Shown here piece after piece: positions 1 to 27,740 of a stretch of 32,000 bases of DNA (positions are counted from its first letter, which is position 1; each line of letters begins with the position of its first letter). Source of the DNA: a bacterium (GTDB lineage: Bacteria; UBP7; UBA6624); contig PBAU01000013.1 of assembly GCA_002716355.1 (NCBI GenBank), positions 1 to 32,000 on the forward strand, given 5' to 3'. A model generated the notes under the pieces. The model saw only the letters and a program-made list of their open reading frames with translations. It had not been told where the DNA came from and searched no databases. The position numbers and the translations under genes are program-made.

Positions 1-123
1 CTTTACTTCTGCTTCTAAAGCCTTATCTTTGGCCTTGATGAAGTTTGGAAGTGCTAAAGCAACAAGAATTCCGATGATTGTTATAACCACCAAAAGTTCA
101 ATAAGAGTAAAACCTCTTTTCAT
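1..123 (-). CDS. Type IV pilin / GspG-like prepilin, N-terminal 41 codons only (gene runs off the window start)
   Basis: The reverse complement of 1-123 reads ATG MKRGFTLIELLVVITIIGILVALALPNFIKAKDKALEAEVK with no stop. It has a class III signal peptide (G|FTLIE) followed by a hydrophobic helix. AGGAGG SD at 133-138 (minus). The N-terminus is paralogous to the two downstream-listed pilins. Confidence 0.8.
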   Translation of the reverse strand, partial: MKRGFTLIELLVVITIIGILVALALPNFIKAKDKALEAEVK

Positions 124-161
124 AATGTATAACCTCCTAAAAATTATAAATATAAAGATTC

Positions 162-205
162 TTTCGTATCTTTGATAACGAAAGTACAAGGGTCGAAGCC
201 CTTGT
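162..205 (-). other. Two adjacent stem-loops in the 175-nt spacer upstream of the third pilin gene (candidate 5' UTR structure)
   Basis: TTCGT(163-167)/ACGAA(178-182), extendable with one bulge. ACAAGGG(186-192)/CCCTTGT(199-205) with a 6-nt loop. Both were read directly from the sequence. Confidence 0.35.
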
Positions 206-262
206 TCTTCCGTCCATTTCAATCTTTAAATCCATTTTCCTAAAACCTTTAAATTTTTGAGC

Positions 263-278
263 GGGGGGCGAACCCCCC
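263..278 (-). terminator. GC-rich hairpin downstream of the 374-aa pilin gene (candidate intrinsic terminator, attenuator or mRNA-stabilising element)
   Basis: GGGGGG(263-268)-CGAA-CCCCCC(273-278) lies 21 nt past the TAA at 299-301, in an otherwise AT-rich spacer. The trailing tract on the minus strand (GCTCAAAAATTT) is only weakly U-rich, so termination is probably partial. Confidence 0.45.
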
Positions 279-298
279 ACTCTTGTTGTTTTCGTAGA

Positions 299-1423
299 TT
301 AGTTACCTCTTTTAACCCTGGCGTCTACACCAGATGCTAAAGTTGTAGCCAAAAAGTCAGTAATTCCATCAGGACCAGAACCACCTGGGTTCTCGTCACC
401 TGCAGGAAGAGCGTTAACTACCCAAGTACCACCTGGGCCATTAGAAGCCGCAGGACTTGCTCTTGGATCAGGTTCGAAGCTGAAGTATCCAGTTGGATGC
501 CACATAGCTCCTCCCCAGCCGTTCCACCAGTAGAAATCACATTCTGTACCATAAGTACTGTTACCACTCTGCCAACCACATGGAGTCATGTGTGTTACAT
601 CTTCACCTGGGCTAGTAAGACCAGAAAGTAGTGAAAGTGTGTAACCAGCAACTGCGTGACCAACGATCATTTGCGCAGGGTTTGAACCAGGTTCACCTAA
701 AGCGAATCTGTGGTTCAATGCTGACATTGTGTCCAAGAAAATTGGGTGATAGTAGAAGTGTCCAGGCATCTGATTCTGCATGTAAATACTGAAATCAGAG
801 TTGGTGTCTTCGTTTGCCCATGTACTTACCCATGGCCAGTCACCACGCGTATTTGAAACATCCATCATTAGGTTACCACCCATACCCATCCAACTAAAAT
901 AGTTGCCGCATGTGTGGCCTTGACCGTAACAGGACTGTTTTGAGAACTTCTTGAATGGGTTAGCTGGGTACTGTGAAAGGTATCCATTAACCATCAAAGC
1001 GTCCATACAAACAGGCAAACTGCCATAGTCATCACCCGCTGCTGGCAACAAGCTGTCAGTACAAAAACCTGGATCAGGTTGATTGTCCTGTACACCTGTT
1101 TGACCTGTAGCGTTGTTGATGTTGTCTGCAAACGCGCCTTCTACGTCCATGTAGGACCAGTAGAAGTTACCCGGTGCCATTCTTACTACATTGTAAGAAG
1201 GGTCACCACCACCAAGGAACCAAGGGTAAAGACCATTCCAGTCAGTACCATATCTCTCTAAAGCAACCTGAATTACACGTAAAGCAGATTTTGCTTGAGC
1301 TTCCTTAGCTTTATCTTTTACCTTAATGAAGTTAGGTAAAGCCATCGCTACGAGAATACCGATAATAACGATAACTACCAAAAGTTCGATTAATGTAAAT
1401 CCACGATTTTTAATATTATTCAT
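299..1423 (-). CDS. Giant GspG/type IV pilin-like protein (374 aa) with prepilin N-terminal cleavage/methylation motif
   Basis: MNNIKNRG|FTLIELLVVIVIIGILVAMALPNF. GspG-like landmarks are GYLSQYPANPF, GHFYYHPIF and the C-terminal GPDGITD...SGVDARV. It has 13 Trp and 6 Cys and is Gly-rich. ATG at 1421-1423; GGAGGT SD at 1430-1435. Confidence 0.85.
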   Translation of the reverse strand: MNNIKNRGFTLIELLVVIVIIGILVAMALPNFIKVKDKAKEAQAKSALRVIQVALERYGTDWNGLYPWFLGGGDPSYNVVRMAPGNFYWSYMDVEGAFADNINNATGQTGVQDNQPDPGFCTDSLLPAAGDDYGSLPVCMDALMVNGYLSQYPANPFKKFSKQSCYGQGHTCGNYFSWMGMGGNLMMDVSNTRGDWPWVSTWANEDTNSDFSIYMQNQMPGHFYYHPIFLDTMSALNHRFALGEPGSNPAQMIVGHAVAGYTLSLLSGLTSPGEDVTHMTPCGWQSGNSTYGTECDFYWWNGWGGAMWHPTGYFSFEPDPRASPAASNGPGGTWVVNALPAGDENPGGSGPDGITDFLATTLASGVDARVKRGN

Positions 1424-1437
1424 ATATATTACCTCCG

Positions 1438-2517
1438 TTACTCGTGCATATTTGGTAGATCAGCATCGTCCATAGGGACTCTTGCGTCAACACCACTTGA
1501 GATCACTGTAATGACTCCATCAAACTGACCATCAGGACCATTATTCATGTCTGATACCTGTCTGTTTTTGCAGTCAAGTCTTGTGTCTCCATCTATATCC
1601 CCGGTGTATGGAGAGTCGCCTTCACAGAAATAAGTATTCTCTCTGAAGTCTCCATATCCGTCATATACATCATGACCTTTGTTTCCTGGAGCACCATATA
1701 CTGAAATGTGGTAACCTAATGGGGCTTCACCCATCCACCACTGTCCGTACATTTTTTCTCCACCGAAAATTGGGTAGTAATAGAAATTACCAGCCATAAA
1801 AGGTCTGTGATACATCTTCGCAGTCTGACAAAGTTGTTGAGCACAATTTACAGTGCCGTTGTTTGCAGGTAATGGTGGAGGCGGAGGATGTCCGTTCCAA
1901 CCACGAGATCGGCCAGGACCACCAGCTATGCTTGGTGCTATACATCCATAACCTCCCTCTGTTACTTCCCACATTGCGTCCCCTGAAGGACCACCAACGC
2001 GTCGACCACCTAAACTACCAGCATTGCCAGTAGCAGATCCAGTAGGACTGCTTGCACAGTCACCACTTCCCCAAGCTTCATCATCCCACTCAAAAGCACT
2101 GTTTGTGCTTCCGTCTGCGTAGGCCCAAGTCATACCTGGAACTGAGAAGTTGTGCCCACCGCCGCCTGCGGCAAATGGGTTCTTAGGGTAAATGGAAAGA
2201 TATCCAAAAGTCAAAAGTGCATCACCGTCGCCACAGCGAGCGTTGCTTGCACAATATTGATTGAAATAAGGAGAGAGTGGCGAAGCGTTTGGATCTGTCG
2301 CATCTCCTCCCATCAACCAGTATGGATATTTTCCGTCATGTTCAGTTGCGTATCTTTCAAGAGCAACTTGGATAACTCTAAGATTACTCTTTACCTGGGA
2401 TTCCATAGCTTTCTCTTTAACTCTTATGAAGTTAGGAAGAGCAATTGCTATAAGAATACCGATGATAACGATAACAACTAACAACTCGATTAGGGTAAAA
2501 CCCTTGTTTCGATTCAT
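1438..2517 (-). CDS. Giant GspG/type IV pilin-like protein (359 aa), paralog of 299-1423
   Basis: Internal ATG at 2515-2517, preceded by AGGAGG (2524-2529), gives MNRNKG|FTLIELLVVIVIIGILIAIALPNF. Shared landmarks are GYLSIYPKNPF, GNFYYYPIF and GPDGQFD...SGVDARV. It has 8 Cys and a PPPPPLP tract. The ORF-track start at 2631 adds 38 non-pilin residues and is rejected. Confidence 0.85.
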   Translation of the reverse strand: MNRNKGFTLIELLVVIVIIGILIAIALPNFIRVKEKAMESQVKSNLRVIQVALERYATEHDGKYPYWLMGGDATDPNASPLSPYFNQYCASNARCGDGDALLTFGYLSIYPKNPFAAGGGGHNFSVPGMTWAYADGSTNSAFEWDDEAWGSGDCASSPTGSATGNAGSLGGRRVGGPSGDAMWEVTEGGYGCIAPSIAGGPGRSRGWNGHPPPPPLPANNGTVNCAQQLCQTAKMYHRPFMAGNFYYYPIFGGEKMYGQWWMGEAPLGYHISVYGAPGNKGHDVYDGYGDFRENTYFCEGDSPYTGDIDGDTRLDCKNRQVSDMNNGPDGQFDGVITVISSGVDARVPMDDADLPNMHE

Positions 2518-2630
2518 CGAAATACCTCCTAAAAATTGAGATTTAATCCTGTCTGATAAATCAGAAGGAATAAGACATTTAGAACTACCTTTTTCAAGGT
2601 TTAAAAAATTAAAAAACTTACTAATCATCA

Positions 2631-3842
2631 TCAGAACAAATCCACAATACTAAATACAGGCAAGTAAAGAGCTACAACTATAACTCCAACAATGACACCT
2701 ATAACCATAATCATAATCGGTTCAATAAGACTTGCCAACTGTTCTACAGTTGCATCTATTTCCTCGTCATAAAAATCAGCTACTTTATGCAACATAGATT
2801 CAAGATTACCTGCCTCTTCCCCAACCGCAACCATGTTATATACCATAGCAGGAAAAACACCTGTTCTTCTCATTGGTATACTTATGGCTTCACCCTCTCT
2901 AACCCTGTCTCGTATATAGTCAACAGTTTTTTCAATGACATGATTATCAGCTGTCGTTTTGGTAACATCTAAAGATTCCATTAATGTTACACCTGACTGT
3001 ATTAGCGTCCCCAATGTTCTGGTAAACCTGGAAACACCAACCATTCTTGACAATTTTCCAAAAATCGGTATCCTCATAATTAAACCGTCTAGCAAAATAT
3101 GCCCCCATTTTGTTTTTCTAAACAAATAAAACAACCAAATGGCGACCAGTGGCAAAGGTATCAATAATGGATTTGCTATTATCCAATCTGAAGCATCCAT
3201 AAGTGTTTGAGTCATAGCTGGCAATGGGGTCTTTCCTTCTGATATCTCCTCAAAGAAAGAAGCAAATTGAGGAACAATAAACAACAAGATACCCATTGTG
3301 ATTAAAAAAGCAGCAATGATAACAAATAAAGGATAGGACATAGCAGCTTTTATTTTATGCCTGAGCTTTAATTCTTTTTCAAAAAAGGTTGCCATCCTCT
3401 CTAAAACATCCTCTAAAACACCACCAATCTCTCCTGCTCTGACCATAGATCTGAAGAATGGAGAAAAAGCTCTCTTGTGCAGACCCATTGAATTATGTAA
3501 AGTTTCACCTGCTTGGATCTTCTTTCTTAAATCAACAAGAATGTCTTTAAAATGTGGGAACTCTGCTTGTTCCTCGAGTGTTGACAATGCCCTAGCTAAA
3601 GTCAAACCAGCTGAAACTAGAAGAGCAAATTGCCTACTGAATATAGTCAGAACCTTAAGGCTGACAGGTTGAGCAGTTCTTAATTTCTTGAGGAACTGAT
3701 TTTCTTTTTGCTCTTTAATTCTTATTACTGTCAAATTTTCAGCCTGTAGAGCATCTATAACAGTTTGAGCAGTATCAGCATTTAATCTTCTGGTGATCGT
3801 CTTCCCGGACGTATCGCGCGCAGTAAACAAATATGTAGGCAT
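2631..3842 (-). CDS. pilC: Type IV pilus / T2SS inner-membrane platform protein (GspF/PilC family)
   Basis: 403 aa with duplicated T2SSF-type repeats carrying MVRAGEIGGVLEDVLERMA and MVAVGEEAGNLESMLHKVADFY. Three hydrophobic segments. Typical N-terminus MPTYLFTARDTSGK. Confidence 0.9.
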   Translation of the reverse strand: MPTYLFTARDTSGKTITRRLNADTAQTVIDALQAENLTVIRIKEQKENQFLKKLRTAQPVSLKVLTIFSRQFALLVSAGLTLARALSTLEEQAEFPHFKDILVDLRKKIQAGETLHNSMGLHKRAFSPFFRSMVRAGEIGGVLEDVLERMATFFEKELKLRHKIKAAMSYPLFVIIAAFLITMGILLFIVPQFASFFEEISEGKTPLPAMTQTLMDASDWIIANPLLIPLPLVAIWLFYLFRKTKWGHILLDGLIMRIPIFGKLSRMVGVSRFTRTLGTLIQSGVTLMESLDVTKTTADNHVIEKTVDYIRDRVREGEAISIPMRRTGVFPAMVYNMVAVGEEAGNLESMLHKVADFYDEEIDATVEQLASLIEPIMIMVIGVIVGVIVVALYLPVFSIVDLF

Positions 3843-3888
3843 AATTTAAAAGCTATGTTTCTTGGCGCGAAAGAGACTTAGCCTTTTG

Positions 3889-3917
3889 ATTATACATAAA
3901 ATTAACGAAAATATCAA
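3889..3917 (-). promoter_or_regulatory. Candidate sigma70-type promoter for pilC and the pilin genes
   Basis: On the minus strand, TTGATA (3917-3912), an exact 17-nt spacer, then TATAAT (3894-3889) preceded directly by TG. The -10 lies 47-52 nt upstream of the pilC ATG (3842). Confidence 0.5.
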
Positions 3918-3919
3918 AT

Positions 3920-3934
3920 CCCTACGTAGTAGGG
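3920..3934 (-). terminator. Candidate intrinsic terminator after pilT
   Basis: On the minus-strand RNA, CCCTAC-TAC-GTAGGG is followed by ATTTGATATTTTCG (U-rich). It starts 31 nt after the pilT stop (3965-3967). The short 6-bp stem makes this only moderately convincing. Confidence 0.4.
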
Positions 3935-3964
3935 GGCAAATGCAACTTTTGAAACAACTCTCCT

Positions 3965-5113
3965 TTATTGTGGTATAAATTCTGCTGTTGGCTCATTGTC
4001 AGAATCAGCTTCCTCACCAGAAGCTTCGGAAAGTTCTGCCTCCTTGGCGGCAATCAAATTCCTTAATTCCTTTGCATTATGACATCTAGACATAGCTGTC
4101 TCAAGTGTTATGAGGTTTGCAAAATAATAATCTCTTAAACATTGATCCATTGTTTGCATTCCTTCTTTCTTGTGTGTCATCATGGTTGATGGTATTTGAT
4201 AAATTTTCCCTTCCCTTATGAGGTTCCTAACAGCTGGAATACCTACCATCATTTCGAATGCAGCCAAACGGCCAGGACGATCAGACCTCTTCAACAACGT
4301 TTGAGACATGATAACCTGAATACAGTTAGCCAATTGCGCTCTAACCATTTCCTGCTGCTCAGCTGGAAAAACATCAATTATCCTGTCAATTGACATTGGT
4401 GCATTAATCGTGTGAATGGTTGCAAAAACCAAATGCCCTGTTTCAGCCGCAGTTATAGCGGCTGCTATAGTTTCCAAGTCCCTCATTTCTCCAACGAGAA
4501 TTATGTCTGGATCCTGCCTCAAAACCCTTTTCATTGATTCGGCAAAGGAAAAAGAGTCCACCCCAATTTCCCTCTGGTTCACAATTGAACTTTTGTGCTT
4601 ATGCGAAAATTCAATTGGATCCTCCAGGGTGACAATATGCTTATGGGTTACGTCATTGATATGATTCAACATAGCAGCCAAACTGGTGGTTTTACCTGAA
4701 CCAGTAGGTCCGGTAACAAGAACCAAACCTCTCGGTTCAAAAATTTTCTTTTTAATAATCTCAGGTAAAAGAATTTCCTCCATTGTTGGTATCCTTAAGG
4801 GCAAAGCCCTGATAGCAAAAGCAACAGATTCTCTTTGGAAGAAAAAATTACACCTAAACCTGCCGAGCCCCTCTTGTTCATAACCGAAATCTAATTCTTT
4901 TTCATTTTCAAATTTTTTCCTCTGCTCTTCACGAATCATGGAATAAGCCAAGGTTCTAGTGTCTTCACTCGTTAAAACAGGAAAGTCTTCAAACTGCTTG
5001 ATTTCTCCAAAAACTCTACAGGATGGTTTTGCTCCTACTGATACATGCAGGTCACTGCCGTTTTCCTCGTGCAACCTTACTAAAAGTTCAAGAATTGTTT
5101 CTTTAATTGCCAT
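3965..5113 (-). CDS. pilT: Type IV pilus retraction ATPase PilT (382 aa) with acidic C-terminal tail
   Basis: Walker A GPTGSGKTT, Asp box GEMRD, His box ATIHT, and the PilT-signature AVRNLIREGKIYQI (AIRNLIRE motif). GGGAGG SD upstream of the ATG at 5111-5113. Extra tail AAKEAELSEASGEEADSDNEPTAEFIPQ. Confidence 0.9.
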   Translation of the reverse strand: MAIKETILELLVRLHEENGSDLHVSVGAKPSCRVFGEIKQFEDFPVLTSEDTRTLAYSMIREEQRKKFENEKELDFGYEQEGLGRFRCNFFFQRESVAFAIRALPLRIPTMEEILLPEIIKKKIFEPRGLVLVTGPTGSGKTTSLAAMLNHINDVTHKHIVTLEDPIEFSHKHKSSIVNQREIGVDSFSFAESMKRVLRQDPDIILVGEMRDLETIAAAITAAETGHLVFATIHTINAPMSIDRIIDVFPAEQQEMVRAQLANCIQVIMSQTLLKRSDRPGRLAAFEMMVGIPAVRNLIREGKIYQIPSTMMTHKKEGMQTMDQCLRDYYFANLITLETAMSRCHNAKELRNLIAAKEAELSEASGEEADSDNEPTAEFIPQ

Positions 5114-5126
5114 AAAGACCTCCCAT

Positions 5127-6947
5127 TTACTCCTTTACAAAAGGAGCAAGCATTTTTGGAGCTTCAGCGAGTTCAGGAATTTTCTTCTCAGATTTGGTTG
5201 TTTCTTCAGATTCCTCATACCCTCCACCTATTTCTATTGCAAGCTCTTCTGGAGGGCAAACTCTAAATAGCTCATCCATGGAAACCTGTCCGTCCAAGAC
5301 TCTAGTAAGGCCTGACTGAAATAATGTATCCATACCCTCATTAATCGCTTCAATTTTGATCTCTTTTTCACTAGCCCCTTGCAAACACATATTTCTTATT
5401 TTGTTTGTCATAACCATCATTTCAAAAATTGCTGATCTTCCTTTTGCCCCTGATCCATTACAAAATTTACACCCAGGAGCGTTATGAACCAATGGTGGTG
5501 TATCTTTGTCATACCCAACCTTTCTCAAAATTGGCTTCAAGCGATCAAACTCTTCCAAAGACATTTCTTCATGTTCTTTGCAATGCTCGCATAACTTTCT
5601 AACCAACCTCTGAGCAACAGCTCCAGATAAAGTTGCATTAACCAAAAAAGGCTCTATGCCCATATTGGTTAATCTTGTTATAGATGAAGCAGCATCATTG
5701 GTGTGAAGTGTTGAAAACACCAAATGACCAGTTAGAGAAGCTTGTATGGCCATCTCCCCAACCTCAAAATCACGAATCTCACCAACCATCATGACGTCAG
5801 GATCTTGTCGCAAAAAACTCCTAAGAGCAGATTCGAAAGTTAGACCCACTTTATTATTCACTTGAACCTGATTAATTTTAGGAATCTGATATTCAACAGG
5901 ATCCTCAATGGTGGTTACGTTAATATCATCACTTGCTATCCTTGAAAGGCTAGCATTTAATGTTGTAGTTTTTCCTGAACCTGTAGGTCCAGTTAGAAGA
6001 ATAATACCATGTGGTTTTTTTAAAAGCTCTGTCCATATGTCTTGTTCTTTTTTGGTAAAACCCAAATCTTCAAGCGTCAACATTGATGCTGACCTGTCCA
6101 ACACACGAGCAACAACCTTTTCACCATTGACAGTTGGAACTGTAGATACACGAAAGTCTATCTTCTTCCCAGAGATTTCTTTTGCTATCTTTCCATCCAA
6201 TGGCTTCCTTCTCTCGGAAGTATCCAGGTTTGCCAAAATCTTAAAACGAGCCACAACAGCAGATAAAGCTGTTTTTGGAATGTCCATCATTTTTTGCAAG
6301 ACTCCATCAACCCTAAATCTGACTTGAAGCTTTGTTTCTTTGGGTTCAAGATGAATATCACTGCATCCCATCTCTACAGCACTCGTCAACAGGCTTTCCA
6401 CAAGCTTGATGATTGGAGCATCATCAACATCCAAAGCCTTGGTCATCTTTTCTAGCTCTTCAGAAAGTAAACCCTCAGCACGTCTCTGGTCTTCAAACTC
6501 CTTTACGGCTTTTTCTGCTTCATGCGCTTTGCCGAAATACTCATCAAATGCATGTTTGTAAGATTCATCACTGGTGATCAAGGGCTTAACCGCTTTGCCT
6601 GTAGAAATCCTGATATCATCGATTGCAATAACATTTAAAGGATCAACCATAGCAACAAGGAGGGTGCTATCAACCTCTTTGATTGGTATGGCTCTATATT
6701 GCTGTATTTTCTCAACAGATAAAAGTCTTGCAGTGGTTAAATCAATCTCCTCTTCATACAAATCAACTTTCTGAATTCCCATCTGACGAGATAGTGCATC
6801 GAGAATCTCATCTGGAGTTGAAATTCCCATATCGATGATGGCTTGACCTAGCCTCTTTCCCGTTTTTTGCTGGTTTGAAAGAGCCTCCTTAAGTTGGTCA
6901 GATGTTACTAAACCTTCATCAACTAATATATCTCCAAGTCTTTTCAT
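5127..6947 (-). CDS. pilB: Type IV pilus assembly / T2SS ATPase (PilB/GspE family, 606 aa) with N-terminal MshEN-type domain
   Basis: Walker A GPTGSGKTTT, GEIRD, STLHTN, and the tetracysteine CEHC...CKFC. The N-terminus carries two RLGxx(L/I/V)2xxG(L/I/V)2x4(L/I/V)x3LxxQ motifs. GGAGGA SD upstream of the ATG at 6945-6947. Confidence 0.9.
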   Translation of the reverse strand: MKRLGDILVDEGLVTSDQLKEALSNQQKTGKRLGQAIIDMGISTPDEILDALSRQMGIQKVDLYEEEIDLTTARLLSVEKIQQYRAIPIKEVDSTLLVAMVDPLNVIAIDDIRISTGKAVKPLITSDESYKHAFDEYFGKAHEAEKAVKEFEDQRRAEGLLSEELEKMTKALDVDDAPIIKLVESLLTSAVEMGCSDIHLEPKETKLQVRFRVDGVLQKMMDIPKTALSAVVARFKILANLDTSERRKPLDGKIAKEISGKKIDFRVSTVPTVNGEKVVARVLDRSASMLTLEDLGFTKKEQDIWTELLKKPHGIILLTGPTGSGKTTTLNASLSRIASDDINVTTIEDPVEYQIPKINQVQVNNKVGLTFESALRSFLRQDPDVMMVGEIRDFEVGEMAIQASLTGHLVFSTLHTNDAASSITRLTNMGIEPFLVNATLSGAVAQRLVRKLCEHCKEHEEMSLEEFDRLKPILRKVGYDKDTPPLVHNAPGCKFCNGSGAKGRSAIFEMMVMTNKIRNMCLQGASEKEIKIEAINEGMDTLFQSGLTRVLDGQVSMDELFRVCPPEELAIEIGGGYEESEETTKSEKKIPELAEAPKMLAPFVKE

Positions 6948-6977
6948 AAAATTCCTCCAGCTTTAATGATTATAAGT

Positions 6978-11106: not shown

Positions 11107-11124
11107 GAGTCCAATTTGTATATT

Positions 11125-12531: not shown

Positions 12532-12536
12532 AAACG

Positions 12537-17992: not shown

Positions 17993-18924
17993 CCTTTTCT
18001 CCTAAATGGATTTAACCTGAATCCACAAATCCATTTTGCCATATTTTCTTCTGAACAAATCCGTCTTTTTTGTATGATTTCTCTCCAAGAGTTCAATTTA
18101 GCATTATCACCTGGATTAAAAGTTGCTGCCAAAGGATCTTTTAAAAAACCCCAGAAAAAACTAATAGCGCAAAATAAAGACGCTGACATTCTCTCGTTGT
18201 CTGATAAATTTTTAAAAATAATTTTCAAATAATTACTTGCCCCTTTTTTTCTGACTTTCAGTATATGCCGAACACCTGTAGATCCTCTTTGATGAATCGC
18301 TGGAGCACCAGGAATAATCCAACTTTCCCAATTTAAATGTCTCAACCTAATATTCAAATCAACATCCTCAAGGTAAGTTCCAAAAGATTCATCAAAGAAC
18401 TCGTTTGCAACTGCTGCCTCTTTTAAAGCTGAGTATCTATAAACTGTGGCAGTGGCAGAGAGTCCGAAAACTTCCTCAGGTTCATCTATCCTCTTGCCAG
18501 ACATTCCAGAAAATCTCTCAGTGCAAACCCAGTCATTCCATAACATATGGCCCGCAGTATCAACTTGTCCTTGTTTGTTTAAGATTAACCCTGAAACAGC
18601 TGCCGCCTTTTTGTTGTCGTCTAAAAATGACTCTGCATTCTTGATCCAGTCTAAAGGTATAAGGCAGTCCTGGTTCAAAATGCAAACATACTTTGATTTG
18701 TTCATTGACAAACCAATGTTTACAGATTTAGCAAACCCAACATTCTTTTTGTTATGAACAACATTAACTTTAATCCCGTCAAACAAACTTGCGGAACTGT
18801 CTTCAGAGGCATCATCAATAACTATAACCTGTTCCAAAAAAGATGAATATTTATTTATGGTTTCAATAAATTTTTTACTGATAATATTTTTTGCATTAAA
18901 AACAGGAATAATCAGAGTTGTCAT
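17989..18924 (-). CDS. Glycosyltransferase, GT2 family
   Basis: TLIIPVFN, VIVIDDASEDSS, ILNQDCL and YLEDVDLNIRL motifs. ATGA overlaps at both ends. Confidence 0.85.
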   Translation of the reverse strand: MTTLIIPVFNAKNIISKKFIETINKYSSFLEQVIVIDDASEDSSASLFDGIKVNVVHNKKNVGFAKSVNIGLSMNKSKYVCILNQDCLIPLDWIKNAESFLDDNKKAAAVSGLILNKQGQVDTAGHMLWNDWVCTERFSGMSGKRIDEPEEVFGLSATATVYRYSALKEAAVANEFFDESFGTYLEDVDLNIRLRHLNWESWIIPGAPAIHQRGSTGVRHILKVRKKGASNYLKIIFKNLSDNERMSASLFCAISFFWGFLKDPLAATFNPGDNAKLNSWREIIQKRRICSEENMAKWICGFRLNPFRRKG

Positions 18925-19913
18925 AATGTTTTCAACTCCTTTAGAGTTTCGCCAATTGCCTTTTCAACTGTTTTTGGTTCCCATTCATCGGGAGCCTTAA
19001 ATGAAGAGCGGTTTTTAAGGACTGCTCTAATCGCTCTCGGTAATGATTCTTTATCCTGGGGATCACCATAAGGCTTAACAACGGGTAACGCCTCTCTATG
19101 TGACGGAATGTCAGACATCAAAACGGGTGCGCCACAGGCAGCTGCTTCCATTGGCACGAAACCAAAACCTTCTGCAAGGCTTGGGCACAAAACAGCAATT
19201 GCAGATCTATAAAAACAAATAATCTCTTCCGTTGTTTTATACCCTTCGAATTCAACCTTATCCCCTAGTAAACCTTTTGCAAGGGTCTGAAGTTTTGCTG
19301 GAACAAGTCCCACTACTTTCAATTTTGGAGAATTCTTAACAGAAAATATTGCATGAATTACAGATAGAAAATTTTTTCGTTTCGGCCATGCCCCAACCAT
19401 TAAAAAATAATCCTGTGTGTTTGTTTCACGTTTCTTAAAAGCATCACTTAACCCATGCTGCACTACAACAGTTTTCCCTAGAGAGGGAAAAACTTTATGT
19501 AAGGTTTTTTGAGTTTCATAACTTACACAAATTCTCAAATCAGCTATTTGCCATGATTGTGGAACTATTTTTTGCCAATACCAACGATTAAAACGTCCTA
19601 GTTCATAAGGATGAGTCAAAGGTATTAAATCATGAACTGCAATTGCTAAAGGCATATTTTTTACCTTTTGAGCGCTGAATCCGGGACTAAAGAGGATATC
19701 GGCTGATGTCAAAGATGCATATGATGGCATTTGTATTTGTTCCCACCACGCTCTAGAAAGCGCTCCTGTAATGGGTTTATCTGATTTTCTTTTCAGCTCA
19801 ATGACATTGACATCTTTTCTTGCGGAAAAGCCTTTACGCATTAAATCTGTATAAACACCAACACCAGTATTCTTACCTCCAATGGCAGTTTGAATGTCAA
19901 ATGCTATTTTCAC
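18921..19913 (-). CDS. Glycosyltransferase, GT4 family
   Basis: SLAEGFGFVPMEAAACGAPVLMSD. I prefer the GTG at 19911-19913 (VKIAFDIQ, read as MKIAFDIQ) because it forms a GTGA overlap with the upstream stop, matching the operon pattern, and is preceded by AGGTGGGGGG. The ORF-track GTG at 19925 is possible. Confidence 0.8.
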   Translation of the reverse strand: MKIAFDIQTAIGGKNTGVGVYTDLMRKGFSARKDVNVIELKRKSDKPITGALSRAWWEQIQMPSYASLTSADILFSPGFSAQKVKNMPLAIAVHDLIPLTHPYELGRFNRWYWQKIVPQSWQIADLRICVSYETQKTLHKVFPSLGKTVVVQHGLSDAFKKRETNTQDYFLMVGAWPKRKNFLSVIHAIFSVKNSPKLKVVGLVPAKLQTLAKGLLGDKVEFEGYKTTEEIICFYRSAIAVLCPSLAEGFGFVPMEAAACGAPVLMSDIPSHREALPVVKPYGDPQDKESLPRAIRAVLKNRSSFKAPDEWEPKTVEKAIGETLKELKTL

Positions 19914-20683
19914 AAAACCCCCCACCTAAATAACAACTTACGCCATTTGAGCATTATTAAATCTTTTCCCTGGCTTAATATTTCAAAAAACCACCAGAAA
20001 ACATTCAACTTTAATGCTTTATAGTGTCTTGCTGTAAAAATTCTTTGCCCACGTAAAAAAATACCATTTAAACGATCTGGTGAAAAATCTCCTGTTGTAA
20101 CTCCACGAATATGATCTACCTTAACAGAGTCTGTGTAAACAATTGACAAACCTTGTTCTTTAGCTCTAAAGCTAATATCTACATCTTCCCAATATGCAGG
20201 ATGGAAAGCCTCAGAAAAACCATTAAGCTTACACCAATGCTCTTTTCTCGTTAGGAAACATGCACCATTAGCGTATCCTGGATGTTTTTGGTTGTAAGTA
20301 GGCCAAGGTCTAGCATTCCTAATATGCAAACCAATTAAAGATTCATTGATTGTCTTATTATTTTTTTGAGTGTTTATCATTGGAACAACTGCAAAAATAT
20401 CAGGATTGGATTTAATAATCTCCAACATAGATTCAACACAACCTTCTTTTGGTTTGATATCATCGTTCATTATGAGTATAAATTCAGATTGACAATGCTT
20501 AACAGCATTGTTGACAGATTTAGAGTAACTAGGTTCAGACTGAATAAAAGTCGTATGTTTGAAATTTGCACAATTTGACCCAGACAAAAAAATATTGCGG
20601 GAACCCTGTTTGTGAAGCCATTCAATAAGGCTTTCCAAATAACAGCTTCTACCCAAAGTGGGTATAACAACATCAAAAGACAT
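19910..20683 (-). CDS. Glycosyltransferase, GT2 family
   Basis: 257 aa with FDVVIPTLGR, LIMNDDI (DxD) and YWEDVDISFRA. Confidence 0.8.
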   Translation of the reverse strand: MSFDVVIPTLGRSCYLESLIEWLHKQGSRNIFLSGSNCANFKHTTFIQSEPSYSKSVNNAVKHCQSEFILIMNDDIKPKEGCVESMLEIIKSNPDIFAVVPMINTQKNNKTINESLIGLHIRNARPWPTYNQKHPGYANGACFLTRKEHWCKLNGFSEAFHPAYWEDVDISFRAKEQGLSIVYTDSVKVDHIRGVTTGDFSPDRLNGIFLRGQRIFTARHYKALKLNVFWWFFEILSQGKDLIMLKWRKLLFRWGVL

Positions 20684-20692
20684 ACTTAAAAG

Positions 20693-22816
20693 TTATGTAG
20701 AAGGGTTGGGGTCAAGTGGAACATCACCCATATCTATCGTTCTACCGGCTTCAACAATAACGGTTTCTGTTGTGCCCATGTAGCCACTGGCGGAAATATC
20801 AATCTCTTTAAAGCCAGGGATAATATTATCAATTCTGAATAAACCTATATTATCAGTAACATCTATCTGTCCAGTACTTCTTACAAGAACAACAGCGTTA
20901 GGGATTGGAAGATTCGTAACAGAATCTCTAACAATACCAGTTAATGCACCTGTTGTTGCATCTCCAATCTGGCTTATACCAATAAATCCAGAACCAAATG
21001 CATCTTCAATAATGGTAGTCTCTCCTGATGTTACACTGAATTCAACAGCTGCTGAATGGTAACCAGGTGCACTAACCGTAACAGATCTGATTCCAGGAGG
21101 TACAGTTGGGAAAGTTAACCTTCCTTCAGAATCTGTACTTCCAGTTACGTTTCCAGCAAACATACCTAAAACTACAGATGCATTTTCAATCGCAACACCT
21201 GTGCCTGAATCTCTAACAACAAGCTCAGCAGAACCGTTTCCTGGAACAGGACAATTCTCTCTAAAGAGTATGAGAAGTTCTGGATCTCCACCAACCCTCT
21301 TGTCCAAGACAAATATCCTGCAGAAGAAATCAAAAGAGACATCCATTGGCCCTTCGATACCAGCCGCAGGAGAGTGTGCTTGGTTGATTGTTCTCAAGAA
21401 GTTCAAGTTTGTGTCCAATACAGTAACCCTACCGTTTCCAAAATCAGATACATAAATCTCATTAGGGAAAACTTGTTTGTCTATACTGATTCCCCATGGC
21501 TGCAAGAAATGGACATTGTCTCCACCTGTATTTGATCCGAAACCACCTACACAATATTGTTGTTCAGGTGGTGCTGGAGGGGTATAAGGAGATGCACTAT
21601 GGGCATCTAGAAGATCTGGTATAGGTTGAGTTATGCAAACACCTGGACCCAAACCAACATTCCCAACATAAACCATTCTGTTGTCAGAAGTAAAATCAAA
21701 ATCAACCATTCTGCCAACATTGAAATTAGTTGGAAGACTCCAAGCAGCTGGTGCGCTTCCTGGTCCCGTAAAAACATGCATGCGGCAATCTCCAGGATTT
21801 GTGCTGAAACCATCTCCGGCATTGCTTTCATAAGGGCATGTTTGAGAATCACCTGGAGTGTATCCAGCACCTTCACCCTCTAAACCCTCACCTCGAGTCC
21901 AGCCAATAAGTAGGGCTTGTGGTGTATCGCCTCTAGTGTCAGGATTGTCATCAGTTGAATCTTCACATGTTATTTCCCCGAAATTTGGCCATACCGGCTG
22001 CCCTACAGTTCTTTGCCAAAGGTTTCCATAAGCATCCCATTCAACACCCAATTGACCAGGTCCTCCTGGAAGCCCATTAACCTGGAAAGGCGTTCCTTGT
22101 GCGTCATAAAGAGTATCTCCAGCAAATTCAACCAATTCATTGCCCATTAGCCAAAAATCTCTGGGGCCTATTGGACCACTGTCACCCTCTTCAAGATCAC
22201 AATTAAATGAATAGTCATCAGCTGCATCGCCACCAGGTATAGCATTTCTTGAAGTTAGTCTGTAACCCCCTAAACCACCCCAAACGCTTGCAGCAAAATA
22301 ACCAGCACCATTTAGTATTCCATGAGGATCGCCAACGAGATCCAGGAAAGTGCCGTCATTTTCAGGTGGCCATATGAAATTACCACCTTGGAAGAAACAA
22401 TCATCATCAAAATTCAACGGTCTTGCAATTGGTCTTCCAATACTGTCAAAAACCAAAACACCCTCTGTTGTTGAAACCAAAATAACATCTCCTATCTCTG
22501 GGAAGTAAGCATTGGTCAAACCTGTTAGACCAGGGTAATCACCCAAACCACTGCTATCAGCAGATATAGAAGGATTGGTCAATGGGTTTCTGAAAGGTGT
22601 CAAGGATCCATAAAAAGGATTGACACAGTCAGTTAGCTCACCATAAGCAACACCAGTTCCTGTAGAAGAATTACCACCATCGGAAGGTAATGTATCGCCA
22701 GGGAAACCGCCGCCAGCAGGATCTGGAACTATACCTACAGGACTTGAGTTTTGACATGCAGAAAAGAAAAGTGAAAACATGACTAAAAATGTAACTGTAA
22801 ATTTATTTTTAAACAT
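20693..22816 (-). CDS. Lipoprotein with NHL/beta-propeller-like region and two C-terminal carboxypeptidase-regulatory-like (CarboxypepD_reg) domains
   Basis: Start at the ATG at 22814-22816, with GGAGGAAG SD 9 nt upstream; the track start at 22822 is a TTG. Lipobox LFFSAC. NHL-like strand motif IYVSDFGNGRVTVLD. The tandem C-terminal modules are GSAELVVRDSGTGVAIENASVVL...GRLTFPTVPPGIRSVTVSAPGYHS and GALTGIVRDSVTNLPIPNAVVLV...GLFRIDNIIPGFKEIDISASGYMG. Confidence 0.7.
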   Translation of the reverse strand: MFKNKFTVTFLVMFSLFFSACQNSSPVGIVPDPAGGGFPGDTLPSDGGNSSTGTGVAYGELTDCVNPFYGSLTPFRNPLTNPSISADSSGLGDYPGLTGLTNAYFPEIGDVILVSTTEGVLVFDSIGRPIARPLNFDDDCFFQGGNFIWPPENDGTFLDLVGDPHGILNGAGYFAASVWGGLGGYRLTSRNAIPGGDAADDYSFNCDLEEGDSGPIGPRDFWLMGNELVEFAGDTLYDAQGTPFQVNGLPGGPGQLGVEWDAYGNLWQRTVGQPVWPNFGEITCEDSTDDNPDTRGDTPQALLIGWTRGEGLEGEGAGYTPGDSQTCPYESNAGDGFSTNPGDCRMHVFTGPGSAPAAWSLPTNFNVGRMVDFDFTSDNRMVYVGNVGLGPGVCITQPIPDLLDAHSASPYTPPAPPEQQYCVGGFGSNTGGDNVHFLQPWGISIDKQVFPNEIYVSDFGNGRVTVLDTNLNFLRTINQAHSPAAGIEGPMDVSFDFFCRIFVLDKRVGGDPELLILFRENCPVPGNGSAELVVRDSGTGVAIENASVVLGMFAGNVTGSTDSEGRLTFPTVPPGIRSVTVSAPGYHSAAVEFSVTSGETTIIEDAFGSGFIGISQIGDATTGALTGIVRDSVTNLPIPNAVVLVRSTGQIDVTDNIGLFRIDNIIPGFKEIDISASGYMGTTETVIVEAGRTIDMGDVPLDPNPST

Positions 22817-22818
22817 AA

Positions 22819-24486
22819 TCAACTTCCTCCACCCTCAGCGGTAGCAAAACCATTCTCGGGATAAAGCCTGAAATTACCAGTATCCCAGGTTCCTGGAGAC
22901 ATCACAACTATACGTGCATCCTGAGCCCTGTAGCCACTTGCTTCGACCTGCACTGTTAAGAAACCACCTATCGGAGCATAAAACTCAAATGCACAATAAG
23001 CATCCAATCCACTTGTGTATGTGATTTCAGAACATATTTCTTCTTCATTGAAGTCCAATAATCCTTGCGCAACCACTCTTACGGTAACTTCTTCTGGCAT
23101 ATTGTCGCCGATTGGCGCATTGGGATTTTTGATTTCAGCTGTACCTGTAACTTTAACAAGCCCTGGCTCTACAAGCTCATTGCTGTTATCGATAAGGTCA
23201 GTTGCTGTTAACGCTCTTGCATGCATCGCTGAACCAAAATTACTCAAATCCTTATCTCTTATAACAATCATGAACTCATCATTTGCAGTCAAGCCATTGT
23301 TTGTCAAGTTAGCCGAAGTTAAAGCAGTAAAGGCATTAAGAGTCGAAGAACCAGCATCACCAACAAAATAACGGAGATTCTGACCCCTCACAGGAATGTT
23401 TCCAAGTGCACCACCATTTCCAGCAAGAAAATCAAAAGCAATCGCTGAGCTTTGGAACGCGTGTGTGCATTCTTCATTTGTGAAGCATTGAATGGTGAAG
23501 CCTAAAGCTTGCTGTCCACCCTGCTCATCAGATCCATTTAAAACACCGATAGATAGGATGTTTGATTCCGCGGACTTCAATGCATTGGCAAGTATCTGAT
23601 CGTCAATTCGTGAATTTGCCCAAAAAAGCTGGAAATCAACATCATTAATCAGATTAAGCATTTCATTTCTGAGCTGTCCGCTATGTGGTCCAAAATAAAC
23701 GTCAATACCGTACCTGTTATCAACAATGATATTCTCGCAATGAGAAGCTGTGCTTTCTTTCTGACCCTGAAATTGATTGTTTTCAAACATCTGATCAAAA
23801 TCCTGGTTGAAACAATTCGCCAATAATGTGTTCTGAAGCCTCATTGAGAAATTAGACATTGAATAAAATGAATTTGATAAAAAGTTTCCTGAAGAAACTA
23901 TAACCTCATCACCATCAATGACCATGTATTTTGAGTTCATAAGTGTGTTTAAGTCATTACCGTCAGTAACAACAACCGCACCAGCAGTTTCTAAGTTTGA
24001 ATAAACAGTTGAATTTGTATTGTAAAAATAATTATCAACAACTATGTTCACGCTAACACCTTTAGCAAGAGCAAAAAGGATTGCATCTTCAATATCTGGC
24101 CTGTTAGCAATATCTGGAACAGCGATATTAACCACTGAATCAGCAGCACTAATATACTCTGATGCATCAAAAATTGCATTTACATGAGATGGGAATTGCT
24201 GCTTAATGCTGTTCAACAATAAAAAACCATCTGTGTTTGTGTCTACACATTCGGTATGAAACCCTATTGCTAAAGGATCTGAAACAAACGCCTCTAAGAC
24301 TTGACCTGAATCCTGATAGTAAACAATTGGATTTCGATAATTTGGATCTGTCGCATCAGGATCCCAACTATCACTGCCATAACCAGAGTAAGGACCACAA
24401 GAAACAACTTCAAGAGCATCCCCACTTGCGCAAGAAGTTACAACTGCCACAAACAGCAAAACTAAAAAATTCAACTTAACTTTCAT
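22819..24486 (-). CDS. Lipoprotein with duplicated phospholipase D-fold domain (both HKD-like motifs have Asn in place of His) and a C-terminal beta-sandwich domain
   Basis: Lipobox VVTSCAS. PLD half 1 reads SVVNIAVPDI..ILFALAKGVSVNIVVD ... NSKYMVIDGDEVIVSSGNF, i.e. NxK(x)4D(x)6SSxN. Half 2 reads IDVYFGP...FQLFWANSRIDDQIL ... NLRYFVGDAGSSTLN. C-terminal module: FLTVQVEASGYRAQDARIVV. Confidence 0.65.
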   Translation of the reverse strand: MKVKLNFLVLLFVAVVTSCASGDALEVVSCGPYSGYGSDSWDPDATDPNYRNPIVYYQDSGQVLEAFVSDPLAIGFHTECVDTNTDGFLLLNSIKQQFPSHVNAIFDASEYISAADSVVNIAVPDIANRPDIEDAILFALAKGVSVNIVVDNYFYNTNSTVYSNLETAGAVVVTDGNDLNTLMNSKYMVIDGDEVIVSSGNFLSNSFYSMSNFSMRLQNTLLANCFNQDFDQMFENNQFQGQKESTASHCENIIVDNRYGIDVYFGPHSGQLRNEMLNLINDVDFQLFWANSRIDDQILANALKSAESNILSIGVLNGSDEQGGQQALGFTIQCFTNEECTHAFQSSAIAFDFLAGNGGALGNIPVRGQNLRYFVGDAGSSTLNAFTALTSANLTNNGLTANDEFMIVIRDKDLSNFGSAMHARALTATDLIDNSNELVEPGLVKVTGTAEIKNPNAPIGDNMPEEVTVRVVAQGLLDFNEEEICSEITYTSGLDAYCAFEFYAPIGGFLTVQVEASGYRAQDARIVVMSPGTWDTGNFRLYPENGFATAEGGGS

Positions 24487-24555
24487 AAATTATCAACCCC
24501 ACGATTGTATTACAACAAAATGCCTTATCGTACATTTTGATCAACTTGGTTTAAG

Positions 24556-25392
24556 CTAATGCTTATACTGTAAGTATAAATCCCTTAAAGAATCCTTCCA
24601 ATGCGGCATTTCCCCAAAACCTAAATCACTCCATCTTTCCTCTAAAAGTATTGATCTTTTTGGCCTTTTTGCCGCTAGAACGAGATTTTCTGTAGAGATT
24701 CGATTTAGCTGTACATCAATGGATTTAAGCTTGAGGAGCTTGTAGGCAAAATCAAACCAGGATGCCGTCCCTCTTGAAGATATGTGTACAACACCCCTGA
24801 AATCACCTTGCATTAAATCAACCAACCTTTGGGCAAAATCAAAAACATATGTTGGTGAGCCAACTTGGTCATCAACTATATTGAGCTTCTTATTCCTTCT
24901 TGCAGCTTGAGTGATCTTTTCTGGAAAATGATTAGCTCCAATTCCATAAAGCCAAGACGTTCTTGCGATAATTGAATTTGGCACTCGTGCAACCTCAACC
25001 TCTCCAAGCATTTTTGATTTTCCATAAAAATTTATTGGATTAACTTTGTCTGAAAATCTATATTCACCAATGGAACCGTCAAAAACATAATCAGTTGAAG
25101 GATAAACCAATTTAACATTATTACGAATACACCAACTCGACAAAGCTCCGATCGAAAAAGTATTTAATGCTAAACATAATCCTTTTTCTGATTCTGCCTT
25201 GTCTACAAGAGTGTAAGCGGATGCTACCAAGACATGAGTTGGACCAAAAGACTGCAGAGCATCAAAACAGGGATGCTTCTCCATAGGTAAATCATTCCTT
25301 GAAAAATTTACTAAATCAATATTTTTATACTCAGAATAAGCTCTTGCTGCTTGAGCGAGTTGTCCATATTTACCTATTATTGCTAATCTCAT
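24556..25392 (-). CDS. rmlD: dTDP-4-dehydrorhamnose reductase
   Basis: 278 aa. MRLAIIGKYGQLA Rossmann start, the RmlD-typical STDYVFDG, and GSPTYVFDFA. Confidence 0.85.
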   Translation of the reverse strand: MRLAIIGKYGQLAQAARAYSEYKNIDLVNFSRNDLPMEKHPCFDALQSFGPTHVLVASAYTLVDKAESEKGLCLALNTFSIGALSSWCIRNNVKLVYPSTDYVFDGSIGEYRFSDKVNPINFYGKSKMLGEVEVARVPNSIIARTSWLYGIGANHFPEKITQAARRNKKLNIVDDQVGSPTYVFDFAQRLVDLMQGDFRGVVHISSRGTASWFDFAYKLLKLKSIDVQLNRISTENLVLAAKRPKRSILLEERWSDLGFGEMPHWKDSLRDLYLQYKH

Positions 25393-25430
25393 ATTAAAGT
25401 ATTTTATGTTATCCTCTATTCTGTAACAAT

Positions 25431-27649: not shown

Positions 27650-27650
27650 T

Positions 27651-27740
27651 CGGAGAGTGTGGGATTCGAACCCACGATACAGCTCATCGCCGCATACACG
27701 CTTTCCAAGCGTGCGCCTTCGTCCACTCGGCCAACTCTCC
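27651..27740 (-). tRNA. tRNA-Ser (anticodon GGA), 90 nt, no encoded CCA
   Basis: The minus strand reads GGAGAGT-TG-GCC-GAGTGGACGAA-GGC-G-CACGC-TTGGAAA-GCGTG-(21-nt variable arm)-GTGGG-TTCGAAT-CCCAC-ACTCTCC-G. It has a 7-bp acceptor stem, the 3-bp D stem typical of Ser, a long variable arm and discriminator G. Confidence 0.9.

Follow-up and report, generated by a model that had tools for sequence, protein, structure and literature searches.

What kind of locus places genes for a type IV pilus, a MoxR–DUF58–transglutaminase trio and a glycan-assembly cluster in one run on one strand? Such a run occupies the first 25 kb of contig PBAU01000013.1 (assembly GCA_002716355.1, from a bacterium of the lineage UBP7; UBA6624), of which we analyzed positions 1 to 32,000; "the window" below means this whole stretch of 32,000 nucleotides (nt). 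A first-pass annotation, made from the sequence alone, had described the run as 21 co-directional genes that are translationally coupled into one unit of three modules. We find that the locus is a real variant of a pilus locus and not one fused 25-kb operon. Its deep, bounded unit is MoxR–DUF58–transglutaminase–PilB–PilT–PilC–three large pilins–PilT2, and the glycan cluster is a shallower, more recent upstream add-on with soft borders. We have fair confidence in the overall picture of a pilus locus with a fixed upstream trio, a glycan cluster joined on and several transcription units. Our confidence in any one specific substrate, either of the transglutaminase or of the glycan pathway, is far lower.

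The trio and the pilus genes

All family assignments are based on a listing of open reading frames and on Pfam and NCBIfam scans of the window proteins, with a Pfam threshold of E<=1e-3 for the 19 complete proteins of the array. The minus-strand run is unbroken from rmlD (24556-25392) to a truncated pilin gene (1-123). The co-directional array reported by the first-pass annotation is real, but it comprises 20 genes, and no 21st was found. In order of transcription these encode RmlD, a lipoprotein with a PLD-like domain, a lipoprotein with NHL-like and CarboxypepD_reg domains, a family 2 glycosyltransferase (GT2), a family 4 glycosyltransferase (GT4), a second GT2, a GT2 of 799 amino acids (aa) with a membrane domain, a GT4, a 309-aa protein, a further GT4, a WbaP-like transferase, MoxR, a DUF58-like protein, a TgpA-like transglutaminase, PilB, PilT, PilC and three prepilins. 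The trio and the pilus genes are as follows, with the supporting matches in parentheses.

10183..11106, minus strand: MoxR-type AAA+ ATPase (AAA_3, 7e-58; AAA_lid_2, 6e-18)
9074..10183, minus strand: DUF58-like protein with an N-terminal transmembrane (TM) segment, the middle gene of the trio (DUF58, E 2.8e-4, 20.6 bits against a cut-off of 23.4)
6978..9077, minus strand: TgpA-like membrane transglutaminase (TgpA_N, 5e-14; Transglut_core, 4e-21)
5127..6947, minus strand: PilB extension ATPase with a tandem N-terminal MshEN c-di-GMP-binding motif (T2SSE, 1e-132; MshEN, 4.7e-16)
3965..5113, minus strand: PilT retraction ATPase, 382 aa (Pfam T2SSE, 1.2e-44; 64-99% identity in relatives)
2631..3842, minus strand: PilC platform protein (Pfam T2SSF, 7e-65, two repeats)
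1438..2517, minus strand: large pilin 1, 359 aa when read from ATG 2517 (N_methyl, 2.7e-10); the mechanical open reading frame extends to 2631
299..1423, minus strand: large pilin 2, 374 aa (Pfam N_methyl, 1.1e-9; N-terminal match to TIGR01710, GspG; C-terminal DG…SGVDA loop)
1..123, minus strand: 5' end of a third large GspG-like pilin, with its start ATG at 123-121 and its first 41 codons, running off the window (MKRGFTLIELLVVITIIGILVALALPNF after AGGAGG)

Contigs for comparison (numbered with the prefix L) were fetched via relatives of the transglutaminase, PilB and the 799-aa protein, and homologues of the window proteins were placed on them by tblastn. In public data, the closest sequences are L034, a contig of a Tara Oceans assembly whose proteins are 98-100% identical, and the protein CL659_05840. 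The order GT2–GT2/TM–GT4–309 aa–GT4–WbaP–MoxR–DUF58–transglutaminase–PilB–PilT–PilC–pilins recurs in four groups, which are distinguished by the identity of their transglutaminase to that of the window.

Close group: L001/2, L034 and L035, transglutaminase 87-99% identical
60-67% group: L003, L008, L009, L011 and L114-116
39% group: L004/5 and L029-31, GC content 0.51-0.52
35% relative: L006, GC content 0.70

The succession of glycosyltransferases, WbaP, MoxR trio and PilB that was first noticed in the window is therefore also found at transglutaminase identities of 35-39% and GC contents of 51-70%. In these groups the pilus proteins (PilB 69-100%, PilT 78-99%) are much better conserved than the trio and the glycosyltransferases. 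Between the window (GC 0.36) and L006/L007 (GC 0.70-0.72), PilB is 69-74% identical while the transglutaminase falls to 35%. The core of MoxR–DUF58–transglutaminase–PilB–PilT–PilC–pilins is present in L001/2, L003, L005, L006, L008, L009, L011, L029-31, L032, L034, L035, L114-116 and L117/118. These carriers span GC contents of 0.36-0.72, PilB identities of 51-100% and transglutaminase identities of 30-99%.

How far each part of the array reaches can be read from the deeper contigs. In the 60% clade the divergent lpxC, an unrelated gene to the right of the array, is itself syntenic, so synteny at that distance is uninformative and it is the deeper contigs that count. On L032 (PilB 53% identical, GC 0.55) the core is preceded by AlaRS, a GH42/GH5-like gene, a GT4 and a Bac_transf gene, and PilB, PilT, PilC and three large pilins are followed by PilT2, GroES and GroEL. 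On L117/L118 (PilB 51-53%, GC 0.59) ZnuA and Peptidase_M23 stand before MoxR, DUF58 and the transglutaminase, no glycan genes are present, and PilB, PilT, PilC and three large pilins lead to PilT2 and an SLH protein. The flanks of the core vary, with a WbaP cluster, Peptidase_M23 or FtsX/HlyD upstream and GroES/EL, an SLH protein or an aminotransferase downstream. The glycan cluster is complete over GC contents of 0.36-0.70 (L001-L006, L029), but it is reduced on L032 to the GH-like gene, the GT4 and the transferase. Since the core survives on L032, L117 and L118 while the glycan cluster is reduced or absent there, the array is layered.

The borders of the glycan cluster also take insertions. 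On L035, whose PilB is 97-98% identical to that of the window, genes for a GNAT acetyltransferase and a beta-keto acid cleavage enzyme (BKACE) are inserted between WbaP and MoxR (4511-5834), co-directional and tightly packed, and the 60% clade has an extra 632-aa gene at the border between rmlD and the lipoproteins. Because these borders accept insertions and the cluster is reduced or absent in deep relatives, the deep selected link is that between the MoxR trio and the pilus and not one among three modules. The three-module association claimed from the window therefore holds in that the adjacency extends beyond one genome, but its strong part is the link of trio and pilus only.

Two sets of control loci bear on this link. 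Among 78 metagenomic PilB loci with 38-45% identity, none has a transglutaminase, MoxR or DUF58 gene in the fetched flanks. Among 17 ordinary TgpA-like loci from Desulfobacterota, Bdellovibrionota, Myxococcota, Aquificota and Flavobacteriaceae, none has PilB or WbaP, and 16 have MoxR nearby.

Within the trio, MoxR scores 36 bits against bpMoxR and 195 bits against AAA_3, which marks it as the classical AAA_3 type. The middle protein had been called DUF58 in the first-pass annotation; the window protein itself lies below the Pfam cut-off, but its position is conserved and its positional orthologues on L032 and L117 match DUF58 firmly (E<=1e-5). In the transglutaminase, hydrophobic segments extend to residue 195; the catalytic core (444-558) lies in a soluble region that follows, and one more TM segment comes at 604-622. 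C497, H541 and D557 are invariant in eight relatives, and the only PDB match of its profile is Pseudomonas aeruginosa TgpA (6g49, E 1.2e-27). TgpA is an inner membrane protein with six TM segments and a periplasmic transglutaminase domain that is active in vitro; it is essential and is co-transcribed with PA2875 (MoxR) and PA2874 (DUF58) (PMC3507681). By homology with TgpA, the transglutaminase domain encoded here probably faces the periplasm. The same work mentions WbmE, a periplasmic transglutaminase-fold enzyme that modifies O-antigen (PMC3507681). We also considered and rejected a reading of the trio as a defense system of the MoxR–vWA type: PADLOC gave only generic similarity to AAA and PLD domains, and the array contains no beta-propeller, kinase, FHA or effector partner genes of such systems.

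The pilus genes show the ATPase, platform and prepilin features of type IVa pili: a PilB-type ATPase, a PilT-type ATPase, a PilC platform protein and prepilins. PilB scores 593 bits (4e-178) against TIGR02538, whose equivalog cut-off of 675 bits it does not reach, and the MshEN motif occurs in it twice in intact form, as RLGDILVDEGLV…Q and RLGQAIIDMGIS…Q (NF053729, 69 bits, cut-off 38). In relatives, a second PilT paralogue lies downstream of the pilins, just beyond the position of the window edge. PilD, PilMNOP and PilQ were found neither in the window nor, in relatives, within 10 kb, and may lie elsewhere in the genome.

The pilins are unusually large (340-410 aa) with a GspG-like N-terminal helix. 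The prepilin N-methylation motif G|FTLIEL gives an N_methyl match in two of them and is readable in the third, for which full-length orthologues of 334-365 aa exist on L008 and L029. None of the pilins is enriched in Ser/Thr. Pilin 1 most likely starts at ATG 2517, which has AGGAGG 8 nt ahead of it and whose orthologues are called with a 150-nt gap after pilC. A C-terminal segment, NGPDGxxDG…SGVDA, is conserved in all three paralogues across clades. We rejected this segment as a candidate sorting or processing signal for the transglutaminase, given its resemblance to the usual GspG-type DG…D loop, which we take it to be. From these features, the locus would encode a retractile, c-di-GMP-responsive, type IVa-like pilus built of unusually large pilins.

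Some relatives differ in the pilin region. L008 (9713-11896) has two tandem copies of the third pilin before the second PilT; they are 334 and 365 aa long and identical at both termini. On L029 (19324-21623) and L031 (9744-12043), the second PilT is followed by three conserved genes whose products (196, 141 and 340 aa) have no Pfam match. The longest of these has 31% similarity to a large pilin, and the three proteins could be minor pilins or assembly factors.

The glycan cluster and the GT2–GT-C protein

The remaining genes of the run encode a priming transferase, glycosyltransferases, the two lipoproteins and RmlD.

11125..12531, minus strand: WbaP-like polyprenyl-phosphate sugar-phosphate transferase (priming; Bac_transf, 3.9e-60)
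12537..13622, minus strand: GT4 (Pfam)
13612..14541, minus strand: 309-aa protein with no Pfam match (hhalign against the neighboring GT4: probability 63%, E 7e-5, 137 columns)
14538..15596, minus strand: GT4 (Pfam)
15593..17992, minus strand: bifunctional glycosyltransferase, 799 aa, with an N-terminal GT2 domain (1-~250; 1.8e-21) and a C-terminal multi-TM, PMT_2-like GT-C domain
17989..18924, minus strand: GT2 (Pfam)
18921..19925 (or 19913), minus strand: GT4 (Pfam)
19910..20683, minus strand: GT2 (Pfam)
20693..22822, minus strand: lipoprotein with NHL-like and CarboxypepD_reg domains (Pfam, lipobox)
22819..24486, minus strand: lipoprotein with a PLD-like domain (Pfam, lipobox)
24556..25392, minus strand: RmlD (dTDP-4-dehydrorhamnose reductase), first gene of the run (RmlD_sub_bind, 2e-64)

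The matches of the WbaP-like transferase to TIGR03022 and TIGR03025 are under the equivalog cut-offs of these models. Besides three GT4 proteins, GT2 domains occur in four proteins, the GT2–GT-C fusion among them, which gives seven to eight glycosyltransferases overall; the 309-aa protein is, tentatively, a degenerate GT-B enzyme. A priming phosphoglycosyl transferase and cytoplasmic glycosyltransferases are thus encoded in the array. No Pfam family of a flippase or ABC exporter, polymerase, chain-length regulator, outer-membrane exporter or ligase was matched among its 19 complete proteins, in agreement with the earlier statement that Wzx, Wzy, Wza, Wzc, an ABC exporter, PilMNOPQ and PilD are missing from the window. 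The two lipoproteins recognized earlier have the lipoboxes FFSAC and VTSC, and both are kept in the 60% clade. The PLD lipoprotein also weakly matches the DISARM DrmC models, via its PLD domain only. An extracytoplasmic PLD-fold enzyme within a glycan cluster is unusual.

The first-pass annotation called the 799-aa protein a plain GT2 and did not recognize its GT-C domain. The C-terminal 500 residues contain about 8 hydrophobic segments and have no Pfam match even at E<=10. An exhaustive HMMER search of 1.8 billion representatives gave three strong clusters and 19 weak matches. Nine of the weak matches were scanned with Pfam, of which seven matched PMT_2 (one of them also PMT), one matched GT87 and one matched nothing. 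In a profile-profile comparison (hhalign), the GT-C region aligned with the weak relatives at 99.8% probability (E 1.5e-28, 343 columns), a score that is inflated because the comparison set was chosen for weak similarity to the query. The motifs WPDEIFT and DVHPPGYF, which follow the TM segment at 332-350, align with WxDExFT and DVHPPLxY of PMT_2-matching proteins. They fit the pattern of GT-C enzymes of the PMT_2 (GT39-GT83-like) kind, in which the first loop of a multi-TM domain carries an acidic DE motif and an HPP(L/G)Y motif comes after it. A profile of the weak relatives had no match in the PDB; for the GT2 part, a dolichol-phosphate mannose synthase was the top PDB match (5mlz, E 5e-4). 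Based on this transitive and profile-profile evidence, we assign the 799-aa protein as a GT2–GT-C fusion. Its GT-C part is very rare, with three strong representative clusters. The first-pass suggestion that the glycan is destined for protein gains some support from the PMT_2-like GT-C domain, with a pilin or a lipoprotein as candidate acceptors.

Probable transcription units and rival readings

The overlaps between adjacent genes on which the single-unit claim was built are present. Four-nucleotide overlaps occur at 9074-9077, 14538-14541, 17989-17992 and 18921-18924, and also at 19910-19913 if an internal GTG start is used; single-nucleotide overlaps occur at 10183 and, given an ATG start, at 15593; and an 11-nt overlap lies at 13612-13622. 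However, the coding fraction of the window is 96.8%, and packing is equally tight among the unrelated genes on the right of the array (PurE and BFN, -8; UDG and MBL, -4; unk148 and PhoD, 0; orf87 and LpxC, -4). With about 97% of the window coding and unrelated neighbors overlapping too, tight junctions say little about functional coupling. The borders of the modules have gaps and not overlaps: 18 nt between WbaP and MoxR, 30 nt between the transglutaminase and PilB and 69 nt between RmlD and the lipoprotein. Two intergenic sites within the pilus genes contain conserved punctuation.

3889..3934, minus strand: hairpin CCCTACTACGTAGGG (3920-3934) and promoter-like TTGATA-17-TATAAT (3889-3917) in the pilT/pilC spacer (motif scan)
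259-282 and 186-205, minus strand: two stem-loops in the pilin2–pilin3 spacer (fold -52.7 kcal/mol, z -4.86)

Both elements of the pilT/pilC site were noted in the first-pass annotation and both are present, the promoter matching at 11 of 12 positions. Hairpin and promoter are kept in the 65-88% clades, and L032 has TTGACA-17-TAAGAT at the same place. The pilC leader that follows (window 3843-3888, minus strand, ~45 nt, …AGGCTAAGTCTCTTTCGCGCCAAG…) is almost invariant in L001, L035, L008 and L011, and its near-invariance persists where transglutaminase identity is just 65%, which suggests a regulatory element; it has no match in Rfam. The pilin2–pilin3 spacer is 175 nt long and contains the two stem-loops, then a promoter-like TTATCA-18-TATATT (149-178), then AGGAGG. 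Compensatory substitutions preserve both stems in L001, L035, L008 and L029 (for example ACAAGGGC…GCCCTTGT, ACAGGAGC…GCTCTTGT and GAGGGGC…GCCCCTC), and they probably act as a terminator or attenuator or as a stabilizer. Between pilC and pilin 1 there is a gap of 113 nt if pilin 1 starts at ATG 2517, and one of ~150 nt in relatives. Matches to sigma-54 promoters before the pilins were no more frequent than expected by chance.

The pilT/pilC site is consequently not the only convincing punctuation, as had been claimed, for there are also the conserved stem-loops before pilin 3, the 113-nt gap after pilC and the 69-nt gap after rmlD. Nor is the idea of one translationally coupled unit supported, given the conserved internal promoter and hairpins, the 18-30-nt gaps and the insertions at the borders, and the reduced or absent glycan cluster of deep relatives. 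The 25 kb are probably expressed as several units, of which one would run from about rmlD or the lipoproteins through pilT, one would be pilC, one pilin1–pilin2 and one pilin3 onward.

In the mechanism that we propose, the TgpA-like enzyme would act in the periplasm on a pilus-related substrate, which could be the large pilins, a pilus-associated glycan or an envelope component, and MoxR and DUF58 would together serve it as an ATP-driven chaperone or regulator. Assembly of a polyprenyl-linked oligosaccharide by the glycan cluster would take place in the cytoplasm, and the GT-C domain would decorate this glycan or transfer it. A sugar carried on polyprenyl phosphate would be made by the GT2–GT-C fusion, which would then pass the sugar, at the outer face of the inner membrane, to an acceptor, the candidates being a pilin, a lipoprotein or the glycan itself. 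Expression would be in several units that share one direction. A more specific form of this proposal makes the trio a module dedicated to maturation or control of the type IV pilus, which might covalently cross-link, trim or anchor the large pilins in the periplasm or gate assembly; we put it forward only tentatively and consider it less likely than not.

Several observations weigh against the picture of a pilus locus with a fixed trio and an added glycan cluster. On L007 (a short fragment, 3-3475, GC 0.72), an FtsX-type permease and an HlyD-type adaptor precede the transglutaminase and PilB, and MoxR and DUF58 are not directly upstream. L033 (PilB 50% identical) has PilB–PilT without the trio. 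We infer the functional link between trio and pilus from conserved gene order alone, and the transcription units from sequence motifs only. The AlphaFold model of the transglutaminase (mean predicted local distance difference test score [pLDDT] of 51.3, 8-sequence alignment) is too poor to judge topology, and that of the 799-aa protein (pLDDT 38.8, 7-sequence alignment) is unusable for fold comparison. The weak relatives used to identify the GT-C domain were picked for their resemblance to the query, although their Pfam assignments are independent of the picking. Finally, two hydrophobic segments lie between the GT2 domain and the DE loop, which makes the number of membrane passes ambiguous; the DE loop would face outward only if one of these two segments is an interface helix.

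Other readings of the locus have to be weighed against this picture. If the 20 genes were a single, translationally coupled superoperon for one pathway that makes glycosylated pilins or lipoproteins, one would understand why the full order from the glycosyltransferases to PilB is held between genomes of 36% and 70% GC and why overlaps of 1-11 nt occur at seven junctions of the glycosyltransferase block and at two further junctions in the MoxR trio. The array encodes a GT-C domain of the protein-mannosyltransferase type, and GT-C pilin glycosylation encoded at the pilin locus has a precedent in TfpW (bioRxiv 10.1101/2020.04.19.049825). We nevertheless regard this reading as improbable, in view of the conserved promoter and hairpin before pilC and hairpins before pilin3, the gaps of 18, 30, 69, 113, 122 and 173 nt at borders, the insertions at WbaP/MoxR and rmlD/lipoprotein in close relatives, the glycan cluster that is missing or reduced in deep relatives retaining trio and pilus, the similar overlaps of unrelated genes in this 97%-coding window and the pilins without Ser/Thr enrichment. 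Mere juxtaposition through shared ancestry in compact, strand-biased genomes, with a housekeeping trio and an ordinary O-antigen, capsule or S-layer locus, has to contend with the trio, or at least the transglutaminase, adjoining pilB over GC 0.36-0.72 despite changing outer flanks, with the absence of this adjacency from all 78 + 17 control loci, and with archaeal type IV pilus loci that are independently tied to transglutaminase-family peptidases and to pairs of vWA and MoxR/GvpN (PMC4858521). It is consistent with the synteny of the unrelated divergent lpxC in the 60% clade, the overlaps between unrelated genes in a window that is 97% coding, the PilB–PilT locus of L033 that lacks the trio, and the fact that MoxR–DUF58–TgpA is a widespread, self-contained operon (PMC3507681). 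On balance, we think that juxtaposition is an unlikely explanation.

It has also to be asked whether a pilus-like machine exports the polysaccharide of the upstream cluster, which would explain why Wzx, Wzy and Wza are absent from the window. Families of flippases, polymerases and outer-membrane exporters were undetected in the array, and the pilins resemble GspG of the type II secretion system. A comparable route had been suggested in the past for the hormogonium polysaccharide of cyanobacteria. The hps cluster of filamentous cyanobacteria joins polysaccharide genes and minor pilins, and pilB and pilQ mutants there lose polysaccharide; however, the hps system has Wzx/Wzy, a Wza-type exporter was found later, and the pilus route is no longer favored (PMC12288463). 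Two PilT retraction ATPases point to a true retractile pilus, deep relatives hold the pilus genes without the glycan cluster, and export genes may sit elsewhere in the genome. We consider export through the pilus very unlikely.

Known systems and the right-hand flank

The statement in the first-pass annotation that no described system has this architecture agrees with our literature search, which covered part of the journals: in it we found no report of a bacterial trio fixed to pilB, nor of the three-module combination. The nearest relative of the trio itself is P. aeruginosa PA2875-PA2874-PA2873 (MoxR–DUF58–TgpA), in which MoxR, DUF58 (the probable counterpart of the DUF58-like gene here) and the transglutaminase stand in the same order with overlapping junctions. 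TgpA, like the enzyme encoded here, has an N-terminal multi-TM region, a soluble Cys-His-Asp core and one later TM segment. In Pseudomonas and in the 17 ordinary loci, the trio lies apart from pilus and glycan genes, whereas here it directly precedes pilB across the lineage. Known function of TgpA is limited to in-vitro transglutaminase activity and essentiality.

Among archaea, type IV pilus loci are likewise linked to surface enzymes of the transglutaminase fold and to MoxR-type ATPases with a vWA-like partner (Makarova, Koonin & Albers 2016, PMC4858521), for which a role in pilin processing or regulation was suggested. The archaeal loci differ in that they use other families (arCOGs), have the two associations in separate groups, and lack TgpA_N and PilT. 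The Esr modules of MoxR, vWA and transglutaminase in Esx operons of Actinomycetales (bioRxiv 2026, PMC13622651) resemble the present locus in placing such a module inside the operon of an envelope-spanning machine. They are proposed to control Esx post-translationally, and the suggested task of their transglutaminase is the covalent attachment of a surface protein (PMC13622651). In contrast to the array, however, the Esr clusters contain beta-propeller sensors, Ser/Thr kinases and FHA proteins, and the machine is Esx.

On the glycan side, the loci for pilin glycosylation (P. aeruginosa TfpW and TfpO/PilO, Neisseria pgl with PglL, and cyanobacterial Ogt by pilA) encode glycosyltransferases beside the pilins, and TfpW, whose pilin glycosylation takes place in the periplasm, has the GT-C fold (bioRxiv 10.1101/2020.04.19.049825). 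Here, in contrast, GT2 and GT-C domains form one protein, and the GT-C domain is encoded ~12 kb from the pilins, with the trio and the ATPases between them; there is no oligosaccharyltransferase of the Wzy_C type, and pilin glycosylation is only a candidate function. The hps cluster is similar in combining pilin-like genes with a cluster of several glycosyltransferases, and is tied to pilus-based motility (PMC12288463). It differs in having Wzx/Wzy and in being without the ATPases, PilC and the MoxR trio. The window pilins weakly match the HpsC model, over the generic prepilin helix only. In the pairs ArnC/ArnT, GtrB/GtrC and Ppm1/Pmt, the GT2 enzyme charges polyprenyl phosphate and the GT-C enzyme transfers the sugar outside the cytoplasm. 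The two are separate proteins in these pairs, whereas the 799-aa protein fuses both.

MoxR–DUF58–TgpA trios occur widely, and in P. aeruginosa TgpA is essential. A trio that is locked to pilus assembly genes across very different genomes offers a concrete place to seek the substrate of a TgpA-type enzyme. If the trio is a pilus module, it would provide the first physiological substrate class for MoxR–DUF58–TgpA and a bacterial counterpart of the unexplained links between transglutaminase/MoxR genes and archaeal pilus loci. If a pilin is the target of the GT2–GT-C fusion, this would be a new route of pilus glycosylation. A practical limit is that all carriers are uncultured and known from metagenomes only.

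To the right of the array lie a divergent orf87-lpxC pair, PurE, a BFN-domain protein, tRNA-Ser, UDG, an MBL-fold protein and PhoD. Only 38 nt (window 25393-25430) lie between the start of rmlD and that of the oppositely oriented orf87-lpxC, an arrangement that is the same in L114. With so little space between the starts, the promoters of rmlD and orf87-lpxC must overlap or sit inside coding sequence. The sole match of an Rfam scan is a tRNA, the tRNA-Ser (anticodon GGA; 27650-27741, minus strand), which begins at the base directly after the stop of the BFN-domain gene. A mechanical open reading frame on the plus strand (27657-27929), which overlaps this tRNA-Ser, is probably spurious.

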